Shown here piece after piece: positions 525 through 58,905 of a stretch of 64,000 nt of DNA. This DNA comes from an uncultured Acidimicrobiales bacterium (GTDB taxonomy: Bacteria; Actinomycetota; Acidimicrobiia; Acidimicrobiales; DATKAS01): the NCBI GenBank assembly GCA_963733765.1, contig CAVTEI010000003.1:1935711-1999710 (forward strand). Reading direction: 5' to 3'. The notes below the pieces were generated by a model. It worked only from the letters and a program-made list of their open reading frames with translations, did not search any database and was not told the DNA's origin. Both the position numbers and the translations under genes were made by a program. Numbering within the stretch: the stretch's first letter is position 1; the number at the start of each line of letters is the position of its first letter.

Positions 525-1687
525 GGCGTGCCGCCGTCGATGCGCAGGATCGCGCCGGTCGTGAAGCTCGAGGCGGCGCTCGCGAAGTACAGCGCGGCGC
601 CCACGACCTCGTCGGGCTGACCGCCCCTCCGCATCGCCATCGTCACCTCGGCTCGCTTCTGGAACATCTCGAGATCCCAGGCCTTGGAGATGTCGGTGAG
701 GAAAGGCCCGGCCTGGATGCAGTTCACCCGCACGGTCGGGCCGAAGGCGTGTGCGAACGCGACGGTCATCGCGTTGAGGCCCGCCTTTGCGGCGGCGTAG
801 GGGATGACGTCGGGGGAGGGCCGGATCGACGCGACGCTCGACACGTTGATGATCGAGCCTCCGTCCCCCTCGGCCATCCGGGTGCCGACGACCGCGCTCA
901 GCCGGAACGGACCCTTGAGGTTCACATCGAGCACCTTGTCGTAGAGCGACTCGGTGACGTTCGCGACGGCGTCGTAGAGCGGCGACATGCCTGCGTTGTT
1001 GACGAGCACGTCGACCTTGCCGAACCGCTCGTAGGCGGCGTCGGCCAGCGCGTCGACCTGCCCCCATTCTCCGACGTGGCACGCGAAGGGCAGCGCCTTC
1101 CGACCCGTCGTGCGCTCGACTTCCTCCGCGAGCTCCTCACAGGACGCGAGCTTGCGGCTCGCGATGACCACGTCGGCGCCGCACGCGGCGAACGCCAGCA
1201 CCATCGAACGGCCGAGGCCGCGGCTTCCGCCCGTCACCACGGCCACCTTGTCGGTGAGATCGAATTGCTCGAGAGGGTTGCTCATGGCGATGGTGTAGCG
1301 CGTCGACTGGGCGGCGACGACCGCGACTTCGACCAACCACTGGGGCCGGGCGAGCGCGGGGACATAGACGAGCGTCGACGCCGGTCGGTGGTCCTTCATC
1401 ACGGCGTCGCGAGCTTCCATCACCAGGGCCACGTTCGCGCCCGCCACGACATACGTCGTCATGGACACGATGTCGTCGATGACGAACCCCGACTCGGCGA
1501 GGATCACCCCGATGTTGCTCCAGACGAGCTTGGACTGTTCGCCGAGGCCCTCGGGGACCGATCCGTCGGGAGCCACGGGGACGACCCCCGCGGTGTGCAA
1601 CATCGCCTTTACGCCACTCGACACCACGCCGTGCGAGTACGCCGCGGCCGGAGGCGCGATCGACGCGGGGTTCACGGCGCGGTTCAC
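521..1687 (-). CDS. RidA/YjgF-like domain fused in frame to a short-chain dehydrogenase/reductase
   Basis: 388-aa ORF with a GTG start. The first ~128 aa look like RidA/YjgF (AAAYSHGV ... [10 protein letters not shown]). Residues ~137-388 are a classical SDR ([20 protein letters not shown]). No stop codon lies between the two parts. Confidence 0.8.
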
Positions 1688-1713
1688 GCGCGCGGGTTCA
1701 CGCTGGGGTTCAT
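1684..1713 (-). other. bridging mini-[12 protein letters not shown] between deoD and the RidA-SDR gene
   Basis: ATG 1713-1711 overlaps the deoD TGA (1712-1710). Its TGA 1686-1684 overlaps the GTG start 1687-1685 of the next gene. It lies in tandem (A/G)TGAACC units. Confidence 0.35.
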
Positions 1714-3057: not shown

Positions 3058-3849
3058 TCAGGCCGGTGGCAGGTCGAGGCCGCCCGCCGCGATCTCCTGC
3101 TCACCCTCGGGAGTGAAGAGAAACTCGATGAACGCGTCGGCCGCACCCGGGTTCGTCGACGCGTTGAGCTTCGCGACGATGCCAGGCACGGTCGCCCGCA
3201 AGTCGACGTCGAGCGCGAGCGACGAGACCGCAGCCGTTGCGTCGGTGCGGTAGGCGAGCCCCGCGCTCGCCCGACCGGTTGCGATGGCCTCGACGACCGT
3301 TTCGCCGTCGGTCGCGAGCACCTCTGGGCTCACGGTGAGACCCGCCCGCATCAACGCGCTGTCGGCAGCCTTCCCGCAGGAGGAGTCGAGGCTGCACAGT
3401 GCAACCGCGCGATTGGGGTCCGCCAAGTCGGCGAGTCCGGCGACACTCTCGGGATTGCCGGGAGGAACGACCAGTACGAGGGGGTCGCTTCCGAAGACGA
3501 GGGGCTCGGTCGCGAGGTGGCCGTTCATCGCGAGAAGGTCGACCGCGTCGCGTCCGATGCTGATGAACACGTCGCCCATCAACCCGCCGGCAACCTGATT
3601 GACCAGCCCGTTGGCGCCGCCGGCGGTCACCACCACCTCGACGCCGGGGTTGAGCTGCGTGAACGCGCTCGCAAGGCGCTCGACGGCAGGGGCGATCGGT
3701 GCGGCCGCGAGCACGACCAAGCGGCCGGTCGGAGGACCGGGAACGGTCGTCGGCGTCGTGGTGGCTACGACGACGGGCGCGACCTCGGTCGCACATCCGG
3801 CGAGCACCGCCGCGGCGGCGAACGCAGCGCACGAGAGCGGCCGTCTCAC
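3058..3849 (-). CDS. modA: ModA-like molybdate/tungstate-binding periplasmic lipoprotein (orphan, no modBC nearby)
   Basis: Lipobox AAAVLAGC, then LVVLAAAPIAPAVERLASAF...TAGGANGLVNQVAGGLMGDVFISIG, which aligns by eye with E. coli ModA (VFAAASL...SFASSGTLARQIEAGAPADLFISA). The GTG start 3849-3847 overlaps the upstream stop (GTGA). Confidence 0.7.
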   Translation of the reverse strand: MRRPLSCAAFAAAAVLAGCATEVAPVVVATTTPTTVPGPPTGRLVVLAAAPIAPAVERLASAFTQLNPGVEVVVTAGGANGLVNQVAGGLMGDVFISIGRDAVDLLAMNGHLATEPLVFGSDPLVLVVPPGNPESVAGLADLADPNRAVALCSLDSSCGKAADSALMRAGLTVSPEVLATDGETVVEAIATGRASAGLAYRTDATAAVSSLALDVDLRATVPGIVAKLNASTNPGAADAFIEFLFTPEGEQEIAAGGLDLPPA

Positions 3850-4784
3850 GTCTCGTACCCGGTGAGGATGCGTCGCGCGACGTCGGCACGGCGAGCCTGG
3901 AGGGCCGGGTCGTCCCACTCGGCCTCGGCTCCGAGCCGCACGAGCAGGTAGTCGAGGCGTTCGTCACCCATCACACCCAGCTGCACCGAGAGCCACCCCT
4001 CGCCGGCGGGCTCGACGCCGTACACCGTGTAGTCGTCCTCGAGAAGGTTGCGGAAACGATCGCTCACACGCACGGAGACGCGAGTGAGGTGCTCGGCGTA
4101 CGAGAACTCGGCGGGCACCTCGATCTCGTCCGCGGGAGGCGTGAAACGAGTACGAGTCATCGCAGCCTCGGCCATGAGGTCGATGCGGAAGTACTTCAGA
4201 CGGTCGTCCCGGTCGCGTCCGTACACGTACCACGAGCCGAACTTTCGGAACACCTTGTACGGCTCGATCTCCCGGTCGGTGGGCTCCATGGCGCCCGGCT
4301 TCAAGTAGCCGAAGCTCACGGTGGTCTCCTCCTCGACGCCGTCGCGCACGGCCTCCAGGCACGGCGGTTCGGGGAGGTGGACCACCACGACCCCGACAAG
4401 CGGCTCGAGCTTGTTGAGCGCGGCGTCGAGCGCGGCGTCGGGCCTGACCGAGCTCTGGCTGATGACGAGCCCGGCAAGATCCAGCTCGAGGGCACTGATC
4501 GAGCTCGGGGGCAACGACCGCATGTCGCGCAGCCAATGGGCGCTGTCCACCGACAGCGTCTCGCTCTCCTCGTCGTAGGAGAACGCGTCCGCCTCGTCGA
4601 TCAGCTCTCCGTCGCTCTGTGAGCGAAACGAGAGGTACAGCACGGGGTCGAGCACGGAGCGCAGTGTTGCGACGTCGACGCCAAGGCGTGACGCGGCATC
4701 GGGCAAGCCGACCGACCCTTGTTCCTCGGCCATGCCGAGGAGCGCCTTCAACACCTCGAACCGGCGTCGCGCGGACAGCGCCAT
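3846..4784 (-). CDS. pafC: HTH-WYL-domain transcriptional regulator, PafC-like
   Basis: 312 aa. N-terminal wHTH (RRFEVLKALLGMAEEQGSVGLPDAASRLGVDVATLRSVL) and a WYL-type core (IEPYKVFRKFGSWYVYGRDRDDRLKYFRIDLM). It is the second gene of a tandem pair, as in actinobacterial pafBC. Confidence 0.6.
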   Translation of the reverse strand: MALSARRRFEVLKALLGMAEEQGSVGLPDAASRLGVDVATLRSVLDPVLYLSFRSQSDGELIDEADAFSYDEESETLSVDSAHWLRDMRSLPPSSISALELDLAGLVISQSSVRPDAALDAALNKLEPLVGVVVVHLPEPPCLEAVRDGVEEETTVSFGYLKPGAMEPTDREIEPYKVFRKFGSWYVYGRDRDDRLKYFRIDLMAEAAMTRTRFTPPADEIEVPAEFSYAEHLTRVSVRVSDRFRNLLEDDYTVYGVEPAGEGWLSVQLGVMGDERLDYLLVRLGAEAEWDDPALQARRADVARRILTGYET

Positions 4785-4819
4785 CAGCGGAGCTCCGACA
4801 GCGCCATCAGTGGAGCTCG
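4774..4819. repeat. 23-bp tandem duplication of the pafB/pafC junction
   Basis: gacagcgccatcagcggagctcc (4774-4796) is followed by gacagcgccatcagtggagctcg (4797-4819); 21/23 identical. Confidence 0.9.
4784..4807 (-). other. bridging mini-ORF MALSELR* between the pafB-like and pafC-like genes
   Basis: ATG 4807-4805 overlaps the pafB-like TGA (4809-4807) as TGATG. TGA 4786-4784 overlaps the pafC-like ATG (4784-4782) as TGATG. It was created by a 23-bp tandem duplication. Confidence 0.35.
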
Positions 4820-5736
4820 GCCATCTGTCGCAGTCGCTCGCACAGGTCGGCGACGACCCTGGGTGGCGAGACGACTCGGACTTGTGTGCCGAGCTCCAAG
4901 AGCCTGTCGATCAGCGCCTCGTGGTTCTTCGACTCCGTTTCGACCGTCGCGTGGTCGTCTTGTCGGGCGGTGATCTCGCCCCCGACGAGGTAGGCCAACC
5001 GGGGCGCGAACGCGACACTCACGTCGAGCACGATGTGCAACGGCGGGTCGGTGCCCCATCGGTTCGGGTCCATGTCGAGGGCAGCGTCACGGTCGAAGTC
5101 GGCGGGGACGTCGAACTCGTCGTCGAGGAGGTCGACCTCACTGATTCGCTCGATGCGAAAGCTGCGCCGATCGCCGACGTCACGATCGTGGCCGACGACG
5201 TACCAGTGCCGGCGCCACATACCGACGGCCCACGGCTGGAGGCGGCGGGACTTGCCCTCGTAGACGAAGTGGACGCCACGTCGGCGGTGGGCGGCCCCGA
5301 TGAGCAGGCGGATCGTGTCGGTGACCTCGAGGAACACCTCGGCTTCGTCGTCGCCGACGGCCGCGCCCAAGCGCTCGGGATCGTGGTCACGTTCGGCCTC
5401 GATGCTCACCTCCACCGCCGCCGACGCCGCGATCAACGCGCGCCGCTCGGCGCGGCTGAAGAACGGTGGTTGCAGCTCATACCGGCCTTCCTGCGCGTCG
5501 TAGCGCGCTTCGATGCCGAAGGCCGCCTTCAGCGCCTCGAGGTCGCGCCGGAAGGTGCTGCGGAGCGCCTCGTGGGCCGGCGTGCTCGTGTCGAGAATCT
5601 CGCCTTGGGCGCCGCGCGGCACCTCGCTGTACCCAGGGACATCAAGCGTCGCTCGGTCGAGCGTGAAGGTCCGCTCGTGGCCGATGTACGCCGCGAGATC
5701 GAGAACTCTCTGGGTGACATCAGCGCTCGCTGGCAT
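4807..5736 (-). CDS. pafB: HTH-WYL-domain transcriptional regulator, PafB-like
   Basis: 309 aa. WYL core LQPWAVGMWRRHWYVVGHDRDVGDRRSFRIERI, with a C-terminal WCX-like region. It is the first gene of the tandem WYL pair. Confidence 0.6.
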   Translation of the reverse strand: MPASADVTQRVLDLAAYIGHERTFTLDRATLDVPGYSEVPRGAQGEILDTSTPAHEALRSTFRRDLEALKAAFGIEARYDAQEGRYELQPPFFSRAERRALIAASAAVEVSIEAERDHDPERLGAAVGDDEAEVFLEVTDTIRLLIGAAHRRRGVHFVYEGKSRRLQPWAVGMWRRHWYVVGHDRDVGDRRSFRIERISEVDLLDDEFDVPADFDRDAALDMDPNRWGTDPPLHIVLDVSVAFAPRLAYLVGGEITARQDDHATVETESKNHEALIDRLLELGTQVRVVSPPRVVADLCERLRQMAELH

Positions 5737-11598: not shown

Positions 11599-13227
11599 AT
11601 GCTCCGTCACCTCTGGGTGTGCACGGCGTGCGTCACGGCGTCGGTGCTGTCCGTCACTCCTGCGCTCGCCGCCGAAGACCTGCAGGGTCCGAGCCAGGTG
11701 CACTACGCGCCGCCCGTCGACGGCCCGATCATCGATCACTTCCGCGCACCGGCGGCGAGATGGGCGGCGGGCAACCGAGGCATCGACTACGAGGCGATCC
11801 CCGGCGAAGCGGTCCTCGCGTCGGCTGACGGCACCGTCGAGTTCGCGGGCCAAGTCGGCGGCACGTTGCACGTCGTCGTCAAACACGCGGACGGTCTCCG
11901 CACGAGCTATTCGTTCCTTGCCTCGGTCTCGGTGATCGAGGGCCAGCAACTCGCGCGCGGCACACCGGTCGGCCGCGCCGGAGCGTCGGTGCACTTCGGC
12001 GTGCGGCTCGGCGACACCTATCTCGATCCCGAGCTCGTGCTCGAGGGCCGCGCCTTCGGCGTGCGCCTCGTGCCGGTCGAGGACCAGACAGAAGCAGAAC
12101 GGCGGCTCGGCGAGATGGTGCGCGACGCGTTCGTCGACGAATGGGCCGCCGGCGGCGGTGGTGGTGTGCCCGCCGCTGTCGTGGGGTGGTTGCGCGACAC
12201 CGCGGATCCGGCCGAGCTGTTGCGTTTGGCCATCCACTACACCAAGGCCGTGTCGGTGCCGGTGCACATCGCGTCGGCAGGCTTCGCGGTCGCGCGGTGG
12301 TACCGACAGCGGACGACGTGCACCGCGAGCGATGGCGTCACCGCGATCGCGGAGCAACCCGTCGGCGACCACATCGTGGTGCTCGTCGCCGGGTTTGGGT
12401 CGTCGAGCGAGTCGGGCGCGGGCATCGACGGGGTCGACTTCGAGACGATCGGCATCCCCGTCGACCGGGTGATGCGGTTCTCCTACAACGGCGGACGCGT
12501 ACCCGGCTCATCCAGCGGCGCGAGCGGGCCGTTCGCCGCGCTCGACACGACGACCTACACGACCTTCGACAGCCAGCGACCGCTCGACGAGGCCGCGGAG
12601 CGTCTCCGTCAGACACTCGAGCAGGTCGCGGCCGAGAACCCCGGCGCCCCGATCGATGTGATCGGCCATTCGCAGGGCGGAGTGGTCGCGCTCCGCGCAC
12701 TCCAGCTCGGGGCCGCCGCCGGATCCCCGCCCGTGGGCGTCCGTCTCGTGACGATCGCGTCCCCGCACCGGGGAGACACGCTCGCGACCGGCGCTGACCT
12801 GCTGTCGCGCAGCCCCCTCCACGAGCTCGCGCTCGACGGTGCGGAGATCGCGATCCCGCAGTTCGCCGACGATGTGCACGACGACGGGTCGGCCCACGAC
12901 CTCTCAGCGGCGTCGGCGTTCATGGACGACTACCAATCGCGCGGGTTGCCGCCCGGGGTGTTCGCGGTGTCGATCGGCGGTCGCTGGGATCCGGTGGTGC
13001 CAGCGCGCGATGCGCGCCTCGACGGTGCCGCACACATCACTGTCGATGTCGGGGGCGTTGCCGCCCATGGCCGGCTGCCGTCCGCCGATGTCGTCACGAC
13101 ACAAGTCGCGCTGGCGGTTCGAGGAGCCCGACCGACCTGCGAGGGTCTGCTCGACGCACTCACCGACCACCTCGCTTCCGACGCCGTGGCCACGGCCGAG
13201 GACCTCGTCGCCCTTGGGTTGGGATGA
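11599..13227 (+). CDS. secreted M23 peptidase domain fused to a C-terminal alpha/beta-hydrolase (lipase/esterase-like) domain
   Basis: Signal peptide ...VTPALAAED. M23 core NRGIDYEAIPGEAVLASADGTVEFAGQVGGTLHVVVKHADGLRTSYSFL. C-terminal half has nucleophile elbow IDVIGHSQGGVVAL plus later Asp/His candidates (RWDPVVP, AAHGRLP). Confidence 0.8.
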   Translation: MLRHLWVCTACVTASVLSVTPALAAEDLQGPSQVHYAPPVDGPIIDHFRAPAARWAAGNRGIDYEAIPGEAVLASADGTVEFAGQVGGTLHVVVKHADGLRTSYSFLASVSVIEGQQLARGTPVGRAGASVHFGVRLGDTYLDPELVLEGRAFGVRLVPVEDQTEAERRLGEMVRDAFVDEWAAGGGGGVPAAVVGWLRDTADPAELLRLAIHYTKAVSVPVHIASAGFAVARWYRQRTTCTASDGVTAIAEQPVGDHIVVLVAGFGSSSESGAGIDGVDFETIGIPVDRVMRFSYNGGRVPGSSSGASGPFAALDTTTYTTFDSQRPLDEAAERLRQTLEQVAAENPGAPIDVIGHSQGGVVALRALQLGAAAGSPPVGVRLVTIASPHRGDTLATGADLLSRSPLHELALDGAEIAIPQFADDVHDDGSAHDLSAASAFMDDYQSRGLPPGVFAVSIGGRWDPVVPARDARLDGAAHITVDVGGVAAHGRLPSADVVTTQVALAVRGARPTCEGLLDALTDHLASDAVATAEDLVALGLG

Positions 13228-13252
13228 CCCGCTGTGATGACCCGCTGTGATG
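13223..13252. repeat. 13-bp tandem repeat (2.3 copies) at the stop codon of the M23-hydrolase gene
   Basis: gatgacccgctgt gatgacccgctgt gatg; the first copy contains the TGA stop (13225-13227). Confidence 0.9.
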
Positions 13253-19244: not shown

Positions 19245-20534
19245 ATGACCGACACCCAGGTACCGGGAGCACAGACCCCCGGGGCCGAGCAGCCGCCCGA
19301 GCAGCCTCGGTCGGTCGTCGGCTTGGTGCTCCTCGTCGCGGGCATCGTCGCCTTGGGCGTGCTCGGGTCGGTGTCGGCCGTGATCGTCGTGCTCGCCCTT
19401 CTCGTGATGATCTTCATGCACGAGCTGGGCCACTACCTCACCGCCCGGTCCGCGGGCATGAAGGTCACCGAGTTCTTCCTCGGCTTCGGCCCCCGCATCG
19501 GGTCATTTCGCAAGGGGGAGACCGAGTACGGGCTGAAGGCGATCCCCGCCGGCGCGTACGTGCGGATCATCGGGATGCACAACCTCGATCCCGTCGAGCC
19601 GGAGGACGAGGCGCGCGCCTACAAGAACAAGCCGTACTGGCGGAAGATGAGCGTCGCTTCGGCCGGCTCGATGATGCACTTCCTGATGGCGGCGCTCCTG
19701 CTGTTCACGCTGTTCGCGACCTATGGCCAGCGCAGCGAGGACAACTGGACGGTCGGAGCGATCTCGCGGCTCGGCAACACGAACACGAGCCCGGCGCTCG
19801 AAGCCGGCCTCGAGATCGGCGATCGCATCGTCGAGGTCGACGGCATCCCGGTCACGACGTTCGACGCGACGGTCGACCTGATCCAGGCGCGACCGGGCCA
19901 GCAGGTGGTGCTCCTGGTCGAGCGTGACGGCGAGACCTTCGAGACCGCGACCACGCTCGAGGAGCGCAACCCCGAGGGGGAGCCGGTCGGGTTCCTCGGC
20001 GTCGGCCCGACGTTCCCATACGAGAGCCAGTCGATCCTGTCCGCCGCGAAGAACACCGGCGTCATGTTCAAGACGCTCACGACCGAGACGCTCGGGGCGC
20101 TCGGCTCGTTCTTCTCGCCGAGCGGGATGTCCGACTACGTCGACACCCTGCTGGGACGGCCGGCGACGTCGACCGACACGGGATCGAGCTCGGACGAGGA
20201 AAGCCAGGGCGATCGCCCGCTGTCGCCGGTCGGCGCCGTGCGGATCGCCTCCCAGGCCGCCGACGCCGGTCTGCCGGAACTGCTCTGGTTCCTGGTCGTC
20301 ATCAACATGTTCGTGGGCATCTTCAACCTGATCCCGTTGCTTCCGCTCGACGGTGGCCACATCGCGATCGGCACCTACGAGAAGATCCGATCCCGCAAGG
20401 GCAAGCGGTACGAGGTCGACGTCGCCAAGCTGATGCCGCTCACCTACGCGGTGGTCCTGTTCATGGGATTCGTCTTCGTGTCTTCGCTGTGGCTCGACCT
20501 TTCCGACCCGCTGCGCAACCCGTTCGGGCAGTGA
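19245..20534 (+). CDS. rseP: M50 site-2 zinc metalloprotease (RseP/Rip1 family) with PDZ domain
   Basis: HELGHYLTAR zinc motif, central PDZ-like region, and second motif NLIPLLPLDGGH. Confidence 0.9.
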   Translation: MTDTQVPGAQTPGAEQPPEQPRSVVGLVLLVAGIVALGVLGSVSAVIVVLALLVMIFMHELGHYLTARSAGMKVTEFFLGFGPRIGSFRKGETEYGLKAIPAGAYVRIIGMHNLDPVEPEDEARAYKNKPYWRKMSVASAGSMMHFLMAALLLFTLFATYGQRSEDNWTVGAISRLGNTNTSPALEAGLEIGDRIVEVDGIPVTTFDATVDLIQARPGQQVVLLVERDGETFETATTLEERNPEGEPVGFLGVGPTFPYESQSILSAAKNTGVMFKTLTTETLGALGSFFSPSGMSDYVDTLLGRPATSTDTGSSSDEESQGDRPLSPVGAVRIASQAADAGLPELLWFLVVINMFVGIFNLIPLLPLDGGHIAIGTYEKIRSRKGKRYEVDVAKLMPLTYAVVLFMGFVFVSSLWLDLSDPLRNPFGQ

Positions 20535-20557
20535 TCGGCGCGGTGACCCCGCGGTGA
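20531..20557 (+). other. bridging mini-ORF VIGAVTPR* between rseP and ispG
   Basis: GTG 20531-20533 overlaps the rseP TGA 20532-20534. TGA 20555-20557 overlaps the ispG GTG 20554-20556. It contains the tandem copies gcggtgacccc/gcggtgagcccc. Confidence 0.35.
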
Positions 20558-30765: not shown

Positions 30766-30793
30766 CGGTGGAGGTGATGCGGTGGAGGTGATC
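30766..30793. repeat. 14-bp tandem duplication containing a full Shine-Dalgarno sequence at the ribF start
   Basis: cggtggaggtgatg (30766-30779) is followed by cggtggaggtgatc (30780-30793). GGAGGTGAT(C) complements the conserved 16S rRNA 3' tail. Confidence 0.9.
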
Positions 30794-57725: not shown

Positions 57726-58888
57726 CGGCTGAGCCGACGAAGGTGAAACCGCTTCGCGTGGGAGTGAACCTCCTGTGGCTGGCGCCCGGCGATGTGGGCG
57801 GATCCGAGGAGTACGTTTGCCGCCTCCTCGACGGCCTCGGGGAGGTCGACCGCCACGATCTCGAGCTGACGCTGTTCGCGAACAAGCGCTTTTGGGGAGC
57901 CCATCCGACGATCGCGAACGCGCACCGTCTGGAGGTCGCCGCGATCTCGGGTCGATCGCGGGCGACGCGCATCGCCGCGGAGGTGAGCTGGCTGGCCACT
58001 CGGGCCAGGGGCCTCGGCCTCGACGTCATGCACCATCCCGGCGGCACGGTGCCCCCGCGCACCGCCAGGCCTGTCGTGCTGTCTCTCCACGACCTGCAGT
58101 ACCTCGAGTACCCCGAGTTCTTCTCGCCGCTCAAGCGCGCCTATCTCCGCAGCGCGGTGCCGCGATCGACGAGACAGGCGGCGATCGTCACGGCACCTAG
58201 CGAGTTCGCGCGCGGCACGGTCATCCATCTGCTCGGCATCGCCGCGGACCGGGTGCTCGTCGTGCCGCACAGCATCCCCGCGGGCGAGCCGGGTTGGGGC
58301 ACTCCACCCGACGTGGTCCGCGCCCACTACGACCTCCCCGGTCCATTCCTCCTGTATCCCGCTGTCACGTGGGCGCACAAGAACCACGTTGCGGTCGTAC
58401 GTGCGCTTTCGGCATTGCGGGCAAAGCACCCCGACCTCACCCTCGTCCTCACTGGCGCCCCGGGTCCGGCGGAAGGTGCCCTCACTGCGGAGATCGACCG
58501 GCTCGGGCTCGCCGACTCCGTGCGGCGCACCGGGCGAGTACCGGCCGTGGACGTCAACGGTCTCTACGACGAGGCCGTGGCAACAGTCGTGCCCTCGCGC
58601 TACGAGGGCTTCGGGATCCCAGCCCTCGAAGCGATGCGCCGGGGATGCCCCGTCGTGGCCGCGAACGCGACCGCCCTCCCCGAGGTGGTCGGCGACGCGG
58701 GTGTACTCGTCCATCCCGACGACATCGACGGCTGGGTGGCGGCGATCGACTCGATCATGGGCGACCCCGAGCGGCGGAGTGCGCTCGTCGAGGCCGGAAT
58801 CTCCCGCGCCGCGTCCTTCAGCGGTGCACGAGCCGCGGCGGCGCTGCTCAGCGCGTACCGTCGCGCCGCGGAGGTCCACAACTCGTGA
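57722..58888 (+). CDS. GT4-family glycosyltransferase
   Basis: ATG 57722 overlaps the upstream stop (ATGA). ...VVPSRYEGFGIPALEAM.... Confidence 0.8.
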   Translation: MTAEPTKVKPLRVGVNLLWLAPGDVGGSEEYVCRLLDGLGEVDRHDLELTLFANKRFWGAHPTIANAHRLEVAAISGRSRATRIAAEVSWLATRARGLGLDVMHHPGGTVPPRTARPVVLSLHDLQYLEYPEFFSPLKRAYLRSAVPRSTRQAAIVTAPSEFARGTVIHLLGIAADRVLVVPHSIPAGEPGWGTPPDVVRAHYDLPGPFLLYPAVTWAHKNHVAVVRALSALRAKHPDLTLVLTGAPGPAEGALTAEIDRLGLADSVRRTGRVPAVDVNGLYDEAVATVVPSRYEGFGIPALEAMRRGCPVVAANATALPEVVGDAGVLVHPDDIDGWVAAIDSIMGDPERRSALVEAGISRAASFSGARAAAALLSAYRRAAEVHNS

Positions 58889-58905
58889 AGGTCGCAGCCT
58901 CGTGA
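58885..58905 (+). other. bridging mini-ORF VKVAAS* between the second and third glycosyltransferase genes
   Basis: GTG 58885-58887 overlaps TGA 58886-58888. TGA 58903-58905 overlaps GTG 58902-58904. The motif ctcgtga is repeated 17 nt apart. Confidence 0.35.

Follow-up and report, generated by a model that had tools for sequence, protein, structure and literature searches.

In a 64-kb stretch of contig CAVTEI010000003.1 from an uncultured Acidimicrobiales bacterium (hereafter the window), two adjacent minus-strand genes resembling pafB and pafC are separated by a tandem duplication of a 23-nt unit, which places a 7-codon open reading frame (ORF), here called the relay ORF, between them. We propose, as a rather probable though not secure reading, that this element is a miniature variable-number tandem repeat (VNTR) born of replication slippage and tolerated because its period, which leaves a remainder of two on division by three, preserves the hand-over of ribosomes from termination to reinitiation. 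The duplication would then be a near-neutral survivor of a frame filter and not an adaptation. The features at the junction are as follows.

Positions 4807..5736, minus strand: pafB-like gene, 309 aa, with WYL and WCX domains (ORF list, translation, Pfam).
Positions 4796..4818, minus strand: repeat copy 1, gagctccacTGATGgcgctgtcg, holding the pafB stop and the relay-ORF start (sequence, Tandem Repeats Finder).
Positions 4784..4807, minus strand: relay mini-ORF ATG gcg ctg tcg gag ctc cgc TGA, 7 codons, MALSELR* (sequence).
Positions 4793..4796, minus strand: GGAG, 8 nt upstream of the pafC ATG (junction comparison).
Positions 4773..4795, minus strand: repeat copy 2, gagctccgcTGATGgcgctgtcc, holding the relay-ORF stop and the pafC start (sequence, Tandem Repeats Finder).
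Positions 3846..4784, minus strand: pafC-like gene, 312 aa, with a WYL domain and a weak PafC-type HTH (translation, Pfam).

On the minus strand the junction reads ...cag atg gcc gag ctc cac TGATG gcg ctg tcg gag ctc cgc TGATG gcg ctg tcc gcg cga cgc cgg... The TGA of the pafB-like gene (4809-4807) overlaps the ATG of the relay ORF (4807-4805), whose own TGA (4786-4784) overlaps the ATG of the pafC-like gene (4784-4782). The relay ORF thus spans the 22-nt gap between the two genes and has one base in common with each of them, in the form of TGATG at both ends. The two 23-nt units (4818..4773) are identical at 21 of 23 positions, and Tandem Repeats Finder reports an array at 4774..4818 with a period of 23, 2.0 copies, 95% matches and 0 indels, whose score of 83 is within the top five of the 36 arrays found in the window. 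The repeat core CTGATGGCGCTGTC has two exact occurrences in the window, both at this junction, and five matches when up to two mismatches are allowed, against 1.3 expected by chance. A dispersed repeat or mobile element was considered as the source of the unit and rejected, since the window holds no further copies.

The frame of the relay ORF follows from the length of the unit. The ATG of copy n plus 23 minus 2 gives the T of the TGA of copy n+1, and the resulting 21 nt are divisible by three; because the unit holds TGATG and its length is 2 mod 3, the ATG of each copy is in frame with the TGA of the next. The original prediction of a tandem 23-bp duplication with two TGATG motifs and a MALSELR* ORF is therefore borne out by the sequence, Tandem Repeats Finder, the ORF list and the translations, and its arithmetic, by which 23 = 2 mod 3 keeps the stop in frame, is correct. 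It had further described the mini-ORF as a chimera of the PafC start (MALS) and the PafB end (EL). The ORF is indeed a junction chimera, but the exact division into MALS and EL is partly a secondary coincidence: the relatives place the original breakpoint at MALSA|LR (tcc gc|g ctc cgc), so that the ancestral form is MALSA + LR, and the Glu of MALSELR in the window is not a product of the breakpoint but arose afterwards, by substitution of tcc gcg to tcg gag.

Junction DNA was gathered from 33 loci, of which genome and metagenome scans gave few and exact-protein look-ups of cluster members gave most. The forms of the junction were as follows.

Single TGATG: L004, L005, L009, L011 and L012, with PafB identities of 92, 68, 64, 55 and 50%, respectively.
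23-nt duplication: window and L015, with identical junctions and flanking genes that differ by 0.16%.
23-nt duplication: L003/L010, L024, L029 and L030, with tcc gcg ctc tgc, MALSALC*.
23-nt duplication: L001, L002 and L017, with tcc gcg ctc cgc, MALSALR*.
23-nt duplication: L006, with tcg gcg.
23-nt duplication: L007, with MAPSTLR*; pafC starts ATG ccg.
20-nt allele: L025-L028 and L031-L033 (seven contigs), in which ctcTGCTGATG has become ctcTGATG through a 3-nt deletion (tgc), MALSAL*.
46-nt allele, three TGATG and three copies: L016, with two MALSALR* ORFs.

The second copy is missing in the relatives outside the duplication-bearing group, whose members have PafB identities of at least 91%. 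The expectation that close relatives would divide into single and duplicated TGATG junctions was thus confirmed, with five single-copy loci on one side and this group on the other. Every clean allele, whether of 20, 23 or 46 nt, has an uninterrupted TGATG chain with a TGATG at each unit boundary, so that the objection that relatives might carry unrelated spacers does not apply. Besides, six Logan contigs (L018-L023) all end 47 nt past CAGATGG. Logan assemblies use k=31, and in a k=31 de Bruijn simulation an allele with at least three copies makes a cycle exactly at that 31-mer end, whereas a two-copy allele assembles through. One further locus, L008 (ENA ERZ25039555 contig_10204), has a spacing of 21 nt and was dropped from the length arguments as a noisy assembly: compared with L001 it has 217 mostly 1-nt indels over 6.9 kb, with frameshifts in pafB, pafC and the downstream genes. 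The contig represents either an error-rich long-read consensus or a locus in decay.

The distribution of these forms indicates the direction of the change. In a neighbour-joining tree of 1860 nt of pafB and pafC, the single-copy locus L004 is sister to a duplicated clade of five sublineages (bootstrap 154/200, 77%). Because five outside relatives, with PafB identities of 50-92%, hold a single TGATG, we take the single-TGATG state to be ancestral and the duplication to be derived, which supports the proposal that an ancestral overlapping junction was duplicated. Judged from these alignments, the most likely history is a single gain, in the ancestor of a species group of uncultured soil Acidimicrobiales. 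The synonymous divergence (dS) between the deepest duplicated lineages is about 0.3-0.4, which makes the duplication old by comparison with species-level splits.

Duplication of gctccNcTGATGgcgctgtccgc, with a GC microhomology at the boundary, gives in its unaltered state the form present in L001, L002 and L017, and the 23-nt tandem duplication was probably created by replication slippage at this 2-nt microhomology. Later events would have comprised an expansion to at least three copies in one sublineage, a loss of 3 nt in another, and point changes at a roughly neutral rate. The tcg gag of the window lies two substitutions from tcc gcg, and L006 (tcg gcg) shows the intermediate with one of them. 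At first, the difference between tcg gag and tcc gcg resembled a 3-nt shift of the duplication boundary. A re-duplication or gene conversion was rejected because it saves no steps over two point substitutions: in the L003 group, which holds the nearest relatives, the form is tcc gcg, with gcc gag in copy 1, so that a templated event would give tcc gag and require an extra C-to-G change. The last codon of the pafB-like gene (4810-4812 in the window) has the form cNc, and N differs by lineage (cac His, cgc Arg, ccc Pro); in the mini-ORF, the copy of this codon reads cgc or tgc. For relatives this close, the site, which immediately precedes TGATG, has changed with unusual frequency.

Two sets of closely related loci show that the junction is still variable in length. 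Within the L003 group, which has 25 variable sites in 1860 nt (at most 1.3% difference), the 20- and 23-nt alleles segregate side by side, and both 23- and 46-nt alleles occur in the L001 group; this is how a small VNTR behaves. In the L003-group loci (L003, L024-L033) the variable sites form mosaic haplotypes and the 20- and 23-nt alleles are not monophyletic, which suggests that the population recombines or that 3-nt slippage has recurred.

A relay of ribosomes would explain why such changes are tolerated. Gene overlaps of -1 and -4 nt allow termination-reinitiation coupling (PMC6728339), whereas gaps of about 20 nt almost abolish it (PMC10666635), and a coupled downstream gene can receive ribosomes from short ORFs (PMC12548453). 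That PafB and PafC assemble into a heterodimer (PMC6789036) is in keeping with a need for coupled synthesis. In the mechanism suggested by the overlaps, ribosomes that end pafB would reinitiate at the overlapping relay ATG, translate 6-7 codons, stop at the next TGATG and reinitiate on pafC. Two reinitiation steps across the 22-nt gap would thereby keep the coupling of pafB and pafC, probably with some loss at each step, and the relay peptide itself would be functionless. In agreement with continued expression of the second gene, the ratio of nonsynonymous to synonymous substitution rates (dN/dS) of pafC is 0.07-0.13 within the duplicated clade (dS up to 0.38), the same as in the comparison with the single-copy L004. 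This marks strong purifying selection on pafC, and PafC is therefore still made and needed. The relay peptide, on the other hand, is not conserved among the alleles: it reads MALSELR, MALSALR, MALSALC, MAPSTLR or MALSAL, with E/A and R/C exchanges, a change of LSA to PST and a length of 6 or 7 residues. Over the 18 spacer bases we counted about seven substitutions on a tree of about 0.6 synonymous substitutions per site, which is near the synonymous rate of the flanking genes. Since the relay peptide drifts, it is not a functional peptide.

Several observations weigh against a relay that is kept for its coupling. The four bases that are specific to the relay (T and G of the first ATG; T and G of the second TGA) show no changes against 1.6-2.4 expected (P about 0.1-0.2), and there have been only two independent informative length events, the 23-nt gain and the 3-nt loss, for which the joint chance that the frame was kept by luck is about 1/9. 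The 3-nt loss is, moreover, mechanistically favoured by a TGcTGa microrepeat. Four real gene junctions in the 64 kb have the same geometry, so that the geometry alone is ordinary in this genome. The single copy of L004 might be a secondary loss, given a bootstrap of only 77%, and the GGAG 8 nt before the pafC ATG could permit independent initiation in the window lineage, in which case the relay would be unnecessary. The case for selection on the relay is statistically weak. What is distinctive at pafB/pafC is the demonstrable origin by duplication of the junction, together with the copy-number series.

These points bear most directly on a rival explanation, namely that the spacer is neutral. 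The two genes would merely be parted by 22 nt, PafC would be initiated de novo at its own ATG, aided by the GGAG in the window lineage, and the mini-ORF would be a geometric by-product. The near-neutral rate of spacer evolution, the lack of significant conservation at the relay-specific bases and the frequency of chance relay geometry in this GC-rich genome are all compatible with it. The GGAG was made from the ancestral CGCG by two substitutions particular to the lineage of the window and L015, lies at optimal spacing and may serve as a Shine-Dalgarno-like site for pafC. However, most duplicated lineages have CGCG or GGCG and not GGAG at this place, and no Shine-Dalgarno-like motif was found upstream of pafB itself; initiation driven by such a motif is therefore not the rule in this operon. 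Furthermore, that the TGATG overlap is kept in relatives with PafB identities as low as 50% speaks for the importance of coupling in this pair, and the chain is intact in all length variants. We consider the neutral spacer doubtful, although it is the strongest of the alternatives.

It is also conceivable that the repeat is an adaptive dosage tuner, in which the copy number of the 23-nt unit (1, 2 or at least 3) acts as a heritable, fast-mutating setting of the PafC:PafB ratio through a loss of ribosomes at each relay step, with the polymorphism held by selection. Copy number and length are polymorphic in near-identical strains and within one sample series, and none of the alleles seen in the duplicated clade has gone back to a single copy despite a dS of about 0.3, as this explanation would have it. 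Yet any short tandem repeat shows such polymorphism even when no selection acts on it, a constant 1:1 ratio would ordinarily suit a heterodimer best (PMC6789036, PMC10666635), and the sample behind the tuner is small, amounting to about five sublineages. Selection for dosage is thus quite unlikely.

A role of RNA structure is less likely still. The two copies of the quasi-palindromic GAUGGCGCUGUC could pair as a 12-16-bp hairpin that masks both AUGs and is opened by the ribosomes translating pafB, and this inter-copy hairpin is present in the minimum-free-energy fold of the 88-nt contexts of most duplicated alleles. However, the folding energies are no better than those of dinucleotide shuffles (z = +0.77, -0.84, -0.27), the predicted fold shifts with the length of the window that is folded, and in L007 two substitutions improve pairs while two break them, which leaves no net covariation. 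The hairpin was rejected as unsupported on the basis of the shuffle z-scores and the context-dependent fold.

The least probable explanations of all are an assembly or sequencing artefact, for which only the shortness of the repeat speaks and which is excluded by its presence in more than ten independent assemblies made from different samples and with different technologies (JGI, ENA/SPAdes, Logan, long-read metagenome-assembled genomes) and by copies that have diverged from one another through lineage-specific substitutions, and a functional micropeptide, which has an ATG start and first residues (MA.S) kept in all alleles but varies in sequence, length (6 or 7 codons) and copy number, while the conserved MALS is inherited from the copied pafC start.

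Relay geometry at other junctions was sought by a mechanical scan of the window, which returned 11 places, four of them between ORFs with coding-like GC content at the third codon position (GC3). Three further junctions are described here.

Positions 1713..1684 (repeats 1664-1713), minus strand: junction of PNP (nucleoside phosphorylase) and RidA/L-PSP-SDR; stop TGA 1712-1710, start GTG 1687.
Positions 20531-20557, plus strand: junction of an M50 protease and IspG; GTGAtcggcgcg, GTGAccccgcg, GTGAgcc (three GTGA motifs), mini-ORF VIGAVTPR*; flanking genes confirmed by Pfam.
Positions 58885-58905, plus strand: junction of two GT4 glycosyltransferases; ctcGTGAaggtcgcagc, ctcGTGAgac (CTCGTGA twice), VKVAAS*; flanking genes confirmed by Pfam.

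The first of these junctions has four tandem 12-14-nt NTGAACC units (ATGAACCCCAGC, GTGAACCCGCGCGC, GTGAACCGCGCC, GTGAACCCCGCG; periods of 12 and 26 in Tandem Repeats Finder), and a 9-codon ORF runs from an ATGA overlap to a GTGA overlap with an offset of 26, again 2 mod 3. Lying 3 kb from the pafB/pafC junction, it has the look of another, older relay built on a junction repeat; it was seen in the window only, as the loci of the relatives end some 100 nt before reaching it. On the plus strand at 30766-30792, a perfect 14-nt tandem duplication (cggtGGAGGtgatg followed by cggtGGAGGtgatc) lies at the start of ribF (FAD synthetase) and just after truB; the GGAGG of its first copy stands 7 nt before GTG 30782, the likely ribF start within the second copy, and ATG 30777 opens MRWR*. 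A perfect 13-nt repeat, gATGAcccgctgt, with 2.3 copies at 13223-13252 on the plus strand, where an M23-peptidase/lipase-like gene ahead of rpsB has its stop, mimics relay geometry but was rejected as a relay, since the supposed downstream gene is spurious: its ORF overlaps rpsB in a different frame. The PNP, M50-IspG and glycosyltransferase junctions hint at a wider phenomenon. That high-GC Actinomycetota have a general class of self-extending relay VNTRs, made of 2-mod-3 junction duplications, which insert throw-away mini-ORFs and whose copy number is a heritable, fast-mutating setting of subunit ratios (here PafC:PafB), seems to us improbable.

The identity of the two flanking genes is supported at the level of the family. 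The pafB-like ORF has a coding-like GC content at its three codon positions (0.74/0.41/0.87), and its product matches the Pfam domains WYL (2.4e-11) and WCX (1.9e-9); the pafC-like product matches WYL (9.2e-13), and HTH_PafC with 20.8 bits, which is under the cut-off of 32. The WCX match is found only in the upstream protein, and the sub-threshold HTH_PafC match only in the downstream one. The two proteins are alignable with each other over the WYL domain only (38% identity over 55 aa, E 3e-6). Both find their best PDB match in 6SJ9, the PafBC of Arthrobacter (E 1.4e-9 for the pafB-like and 2.9e-7 for the pafC-like protein), followed by 7P5X and 9FND, and neither protein matched any of the NCBIfam models. 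The N-terminus MAL(S/P/R)xxxRFE of the pafC-like protein is kept in all relatives, and JGI names some of the relatives proteasome accessory factor B or C. The closest genomes are metagenome-assembled genomes of uncultured Acidimicrobiales.

The gene that follows pafC is listed below.

Positions 3058..3849, minus strand: solute-binding-protein gene (Pfam SBP_bac_11, 1.5e-34).

The start codon of this gene, GTG (3849-3847), and the stop of pafC share the sequence GTGA, which places the gene in the same operon; at this position the annotation of the relatives has a 263-aa gene with a 4-nt overlap. The conserved gene order runs from a CAP-domain gene through the pafB-like and pafC-like genes to the solute-binding-protein gene, and PilZ, PNP_UDP_1 (nucleoside phosphorylase), MDMPI_N and an Mg-chelatase-like gene are nearby in the window and in the relatives with flanking DNA. 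In the same set, no pafA or prcAB was found within about 5 kb of the pair, the rest of the 64-kb window not having been scanned for pafA. The naming of the genes as pafB and pafC thus holds for the family, as they are WYL paralogues whose best solved relative is PafBC, and does not extend to the locus, where no proteasome genes are adjacent. We regard a PafBC-like pair of WYL-domain regulators as a defensible label on the domain and structure matches, with pafB/pafC used as a family-level name. PafBC itself is a heterodimeric transcription activator that controls a DNA-damage regulon, and its two adjacent homologous genes each encode HTH, WYL and WCX domains. Its operon is usually linked to the Pup-proteasome locus, where it follows pafA (PMC6789036). 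The present pair resembles it in consisting of adjacent paralogous WYL genes, one with WCX and one with a weak PafC-type HTH, with 6SJ9 as the closest structure, but the sequence similarity is only remote (E 1e-9 and 3e-7), and neither pafA nor the proteasome genes adjoin the pair.

The junction can be compared with known cases of translational coupling. As in coupling through ATGA or TGATG overlaps (Huber et al. 2019, PMC6728339; 2023, PMC10666635), the genes form a co-directional pair that probably encodes subunits of one complex, all single-copy relatives have the -1 overlap TGATG, and the ends of the mini-ORF are again -1 overlaps. In contrast to direct overlap coupling, two or three overlaps are here chained by 6-7-codon ORFs, in a putative coupling chain that was born of a junction duplication. 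Among intercistronic repeats, mycobacterial interspersed repetitive units (MIRUs) have been described, in PMC12548453 citing Supply et al. 1997, as carrying a short ORF that is coupled to a flanking gene. The pafB/pafC repeat resembles MIRUs, as described there, in belonging to the Actinomycetota and in being a tandem unit of variable copy number between operon genes (1, 2 and 3 copies and a 20-nt derivative). A further likeness is the small ORF in each unit, whose start and stop overlap the stop and start of its neighbours, so that insertion or expansion would have little polar effect. MIRUs are roughly 40-100 bp in length, whereas the junction unit is only 23 nt, is built from the local pafB end and pafC start, and is not dispersed in the window, with no sign of mobility. 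According to the account of Shell et al. 2015 given in PMC12548453, short upstream ORFs of mycobacteria also hand ribosomes to a coupled downstream gene. The relay ORF is like these, as far as that account describes them, in being very short, with a peptide that is not conserved and a likely sole role in handing over ribosomes through a stop/start overlap; it differs in lying between two coupled genes, where it would take its ribosome from the stop of the upstream gene and not from a 5' leader.

Overall, the feature is a small variant of the known coupling of translation by short ORFs and of MIRU-like intercistronic VNTRs, and the pafB/pafC duplication is probably a small, near-neutral one, of modest interest unless a relay or tuner function is demonstrated. 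It offers a natural allelic series at one junction, with 1, 2 and at least 3 copies and a 20-nt derivative in otherwise near-identical backgrounds. Such a series suits the question of how post-termination ribosomes find the next start, for which direct reinitiation at overlaps and scanning of short gaps are still debated (PMC10666635, PMC12548453). For annotation, it means that a 22-nt gap recorded as intergenic may conceal a coupling ORF that gene callers do not report. For the operon itself, it suggests that slippage can part an overlapping junction without breaking an operon that encodes a heterodimer.

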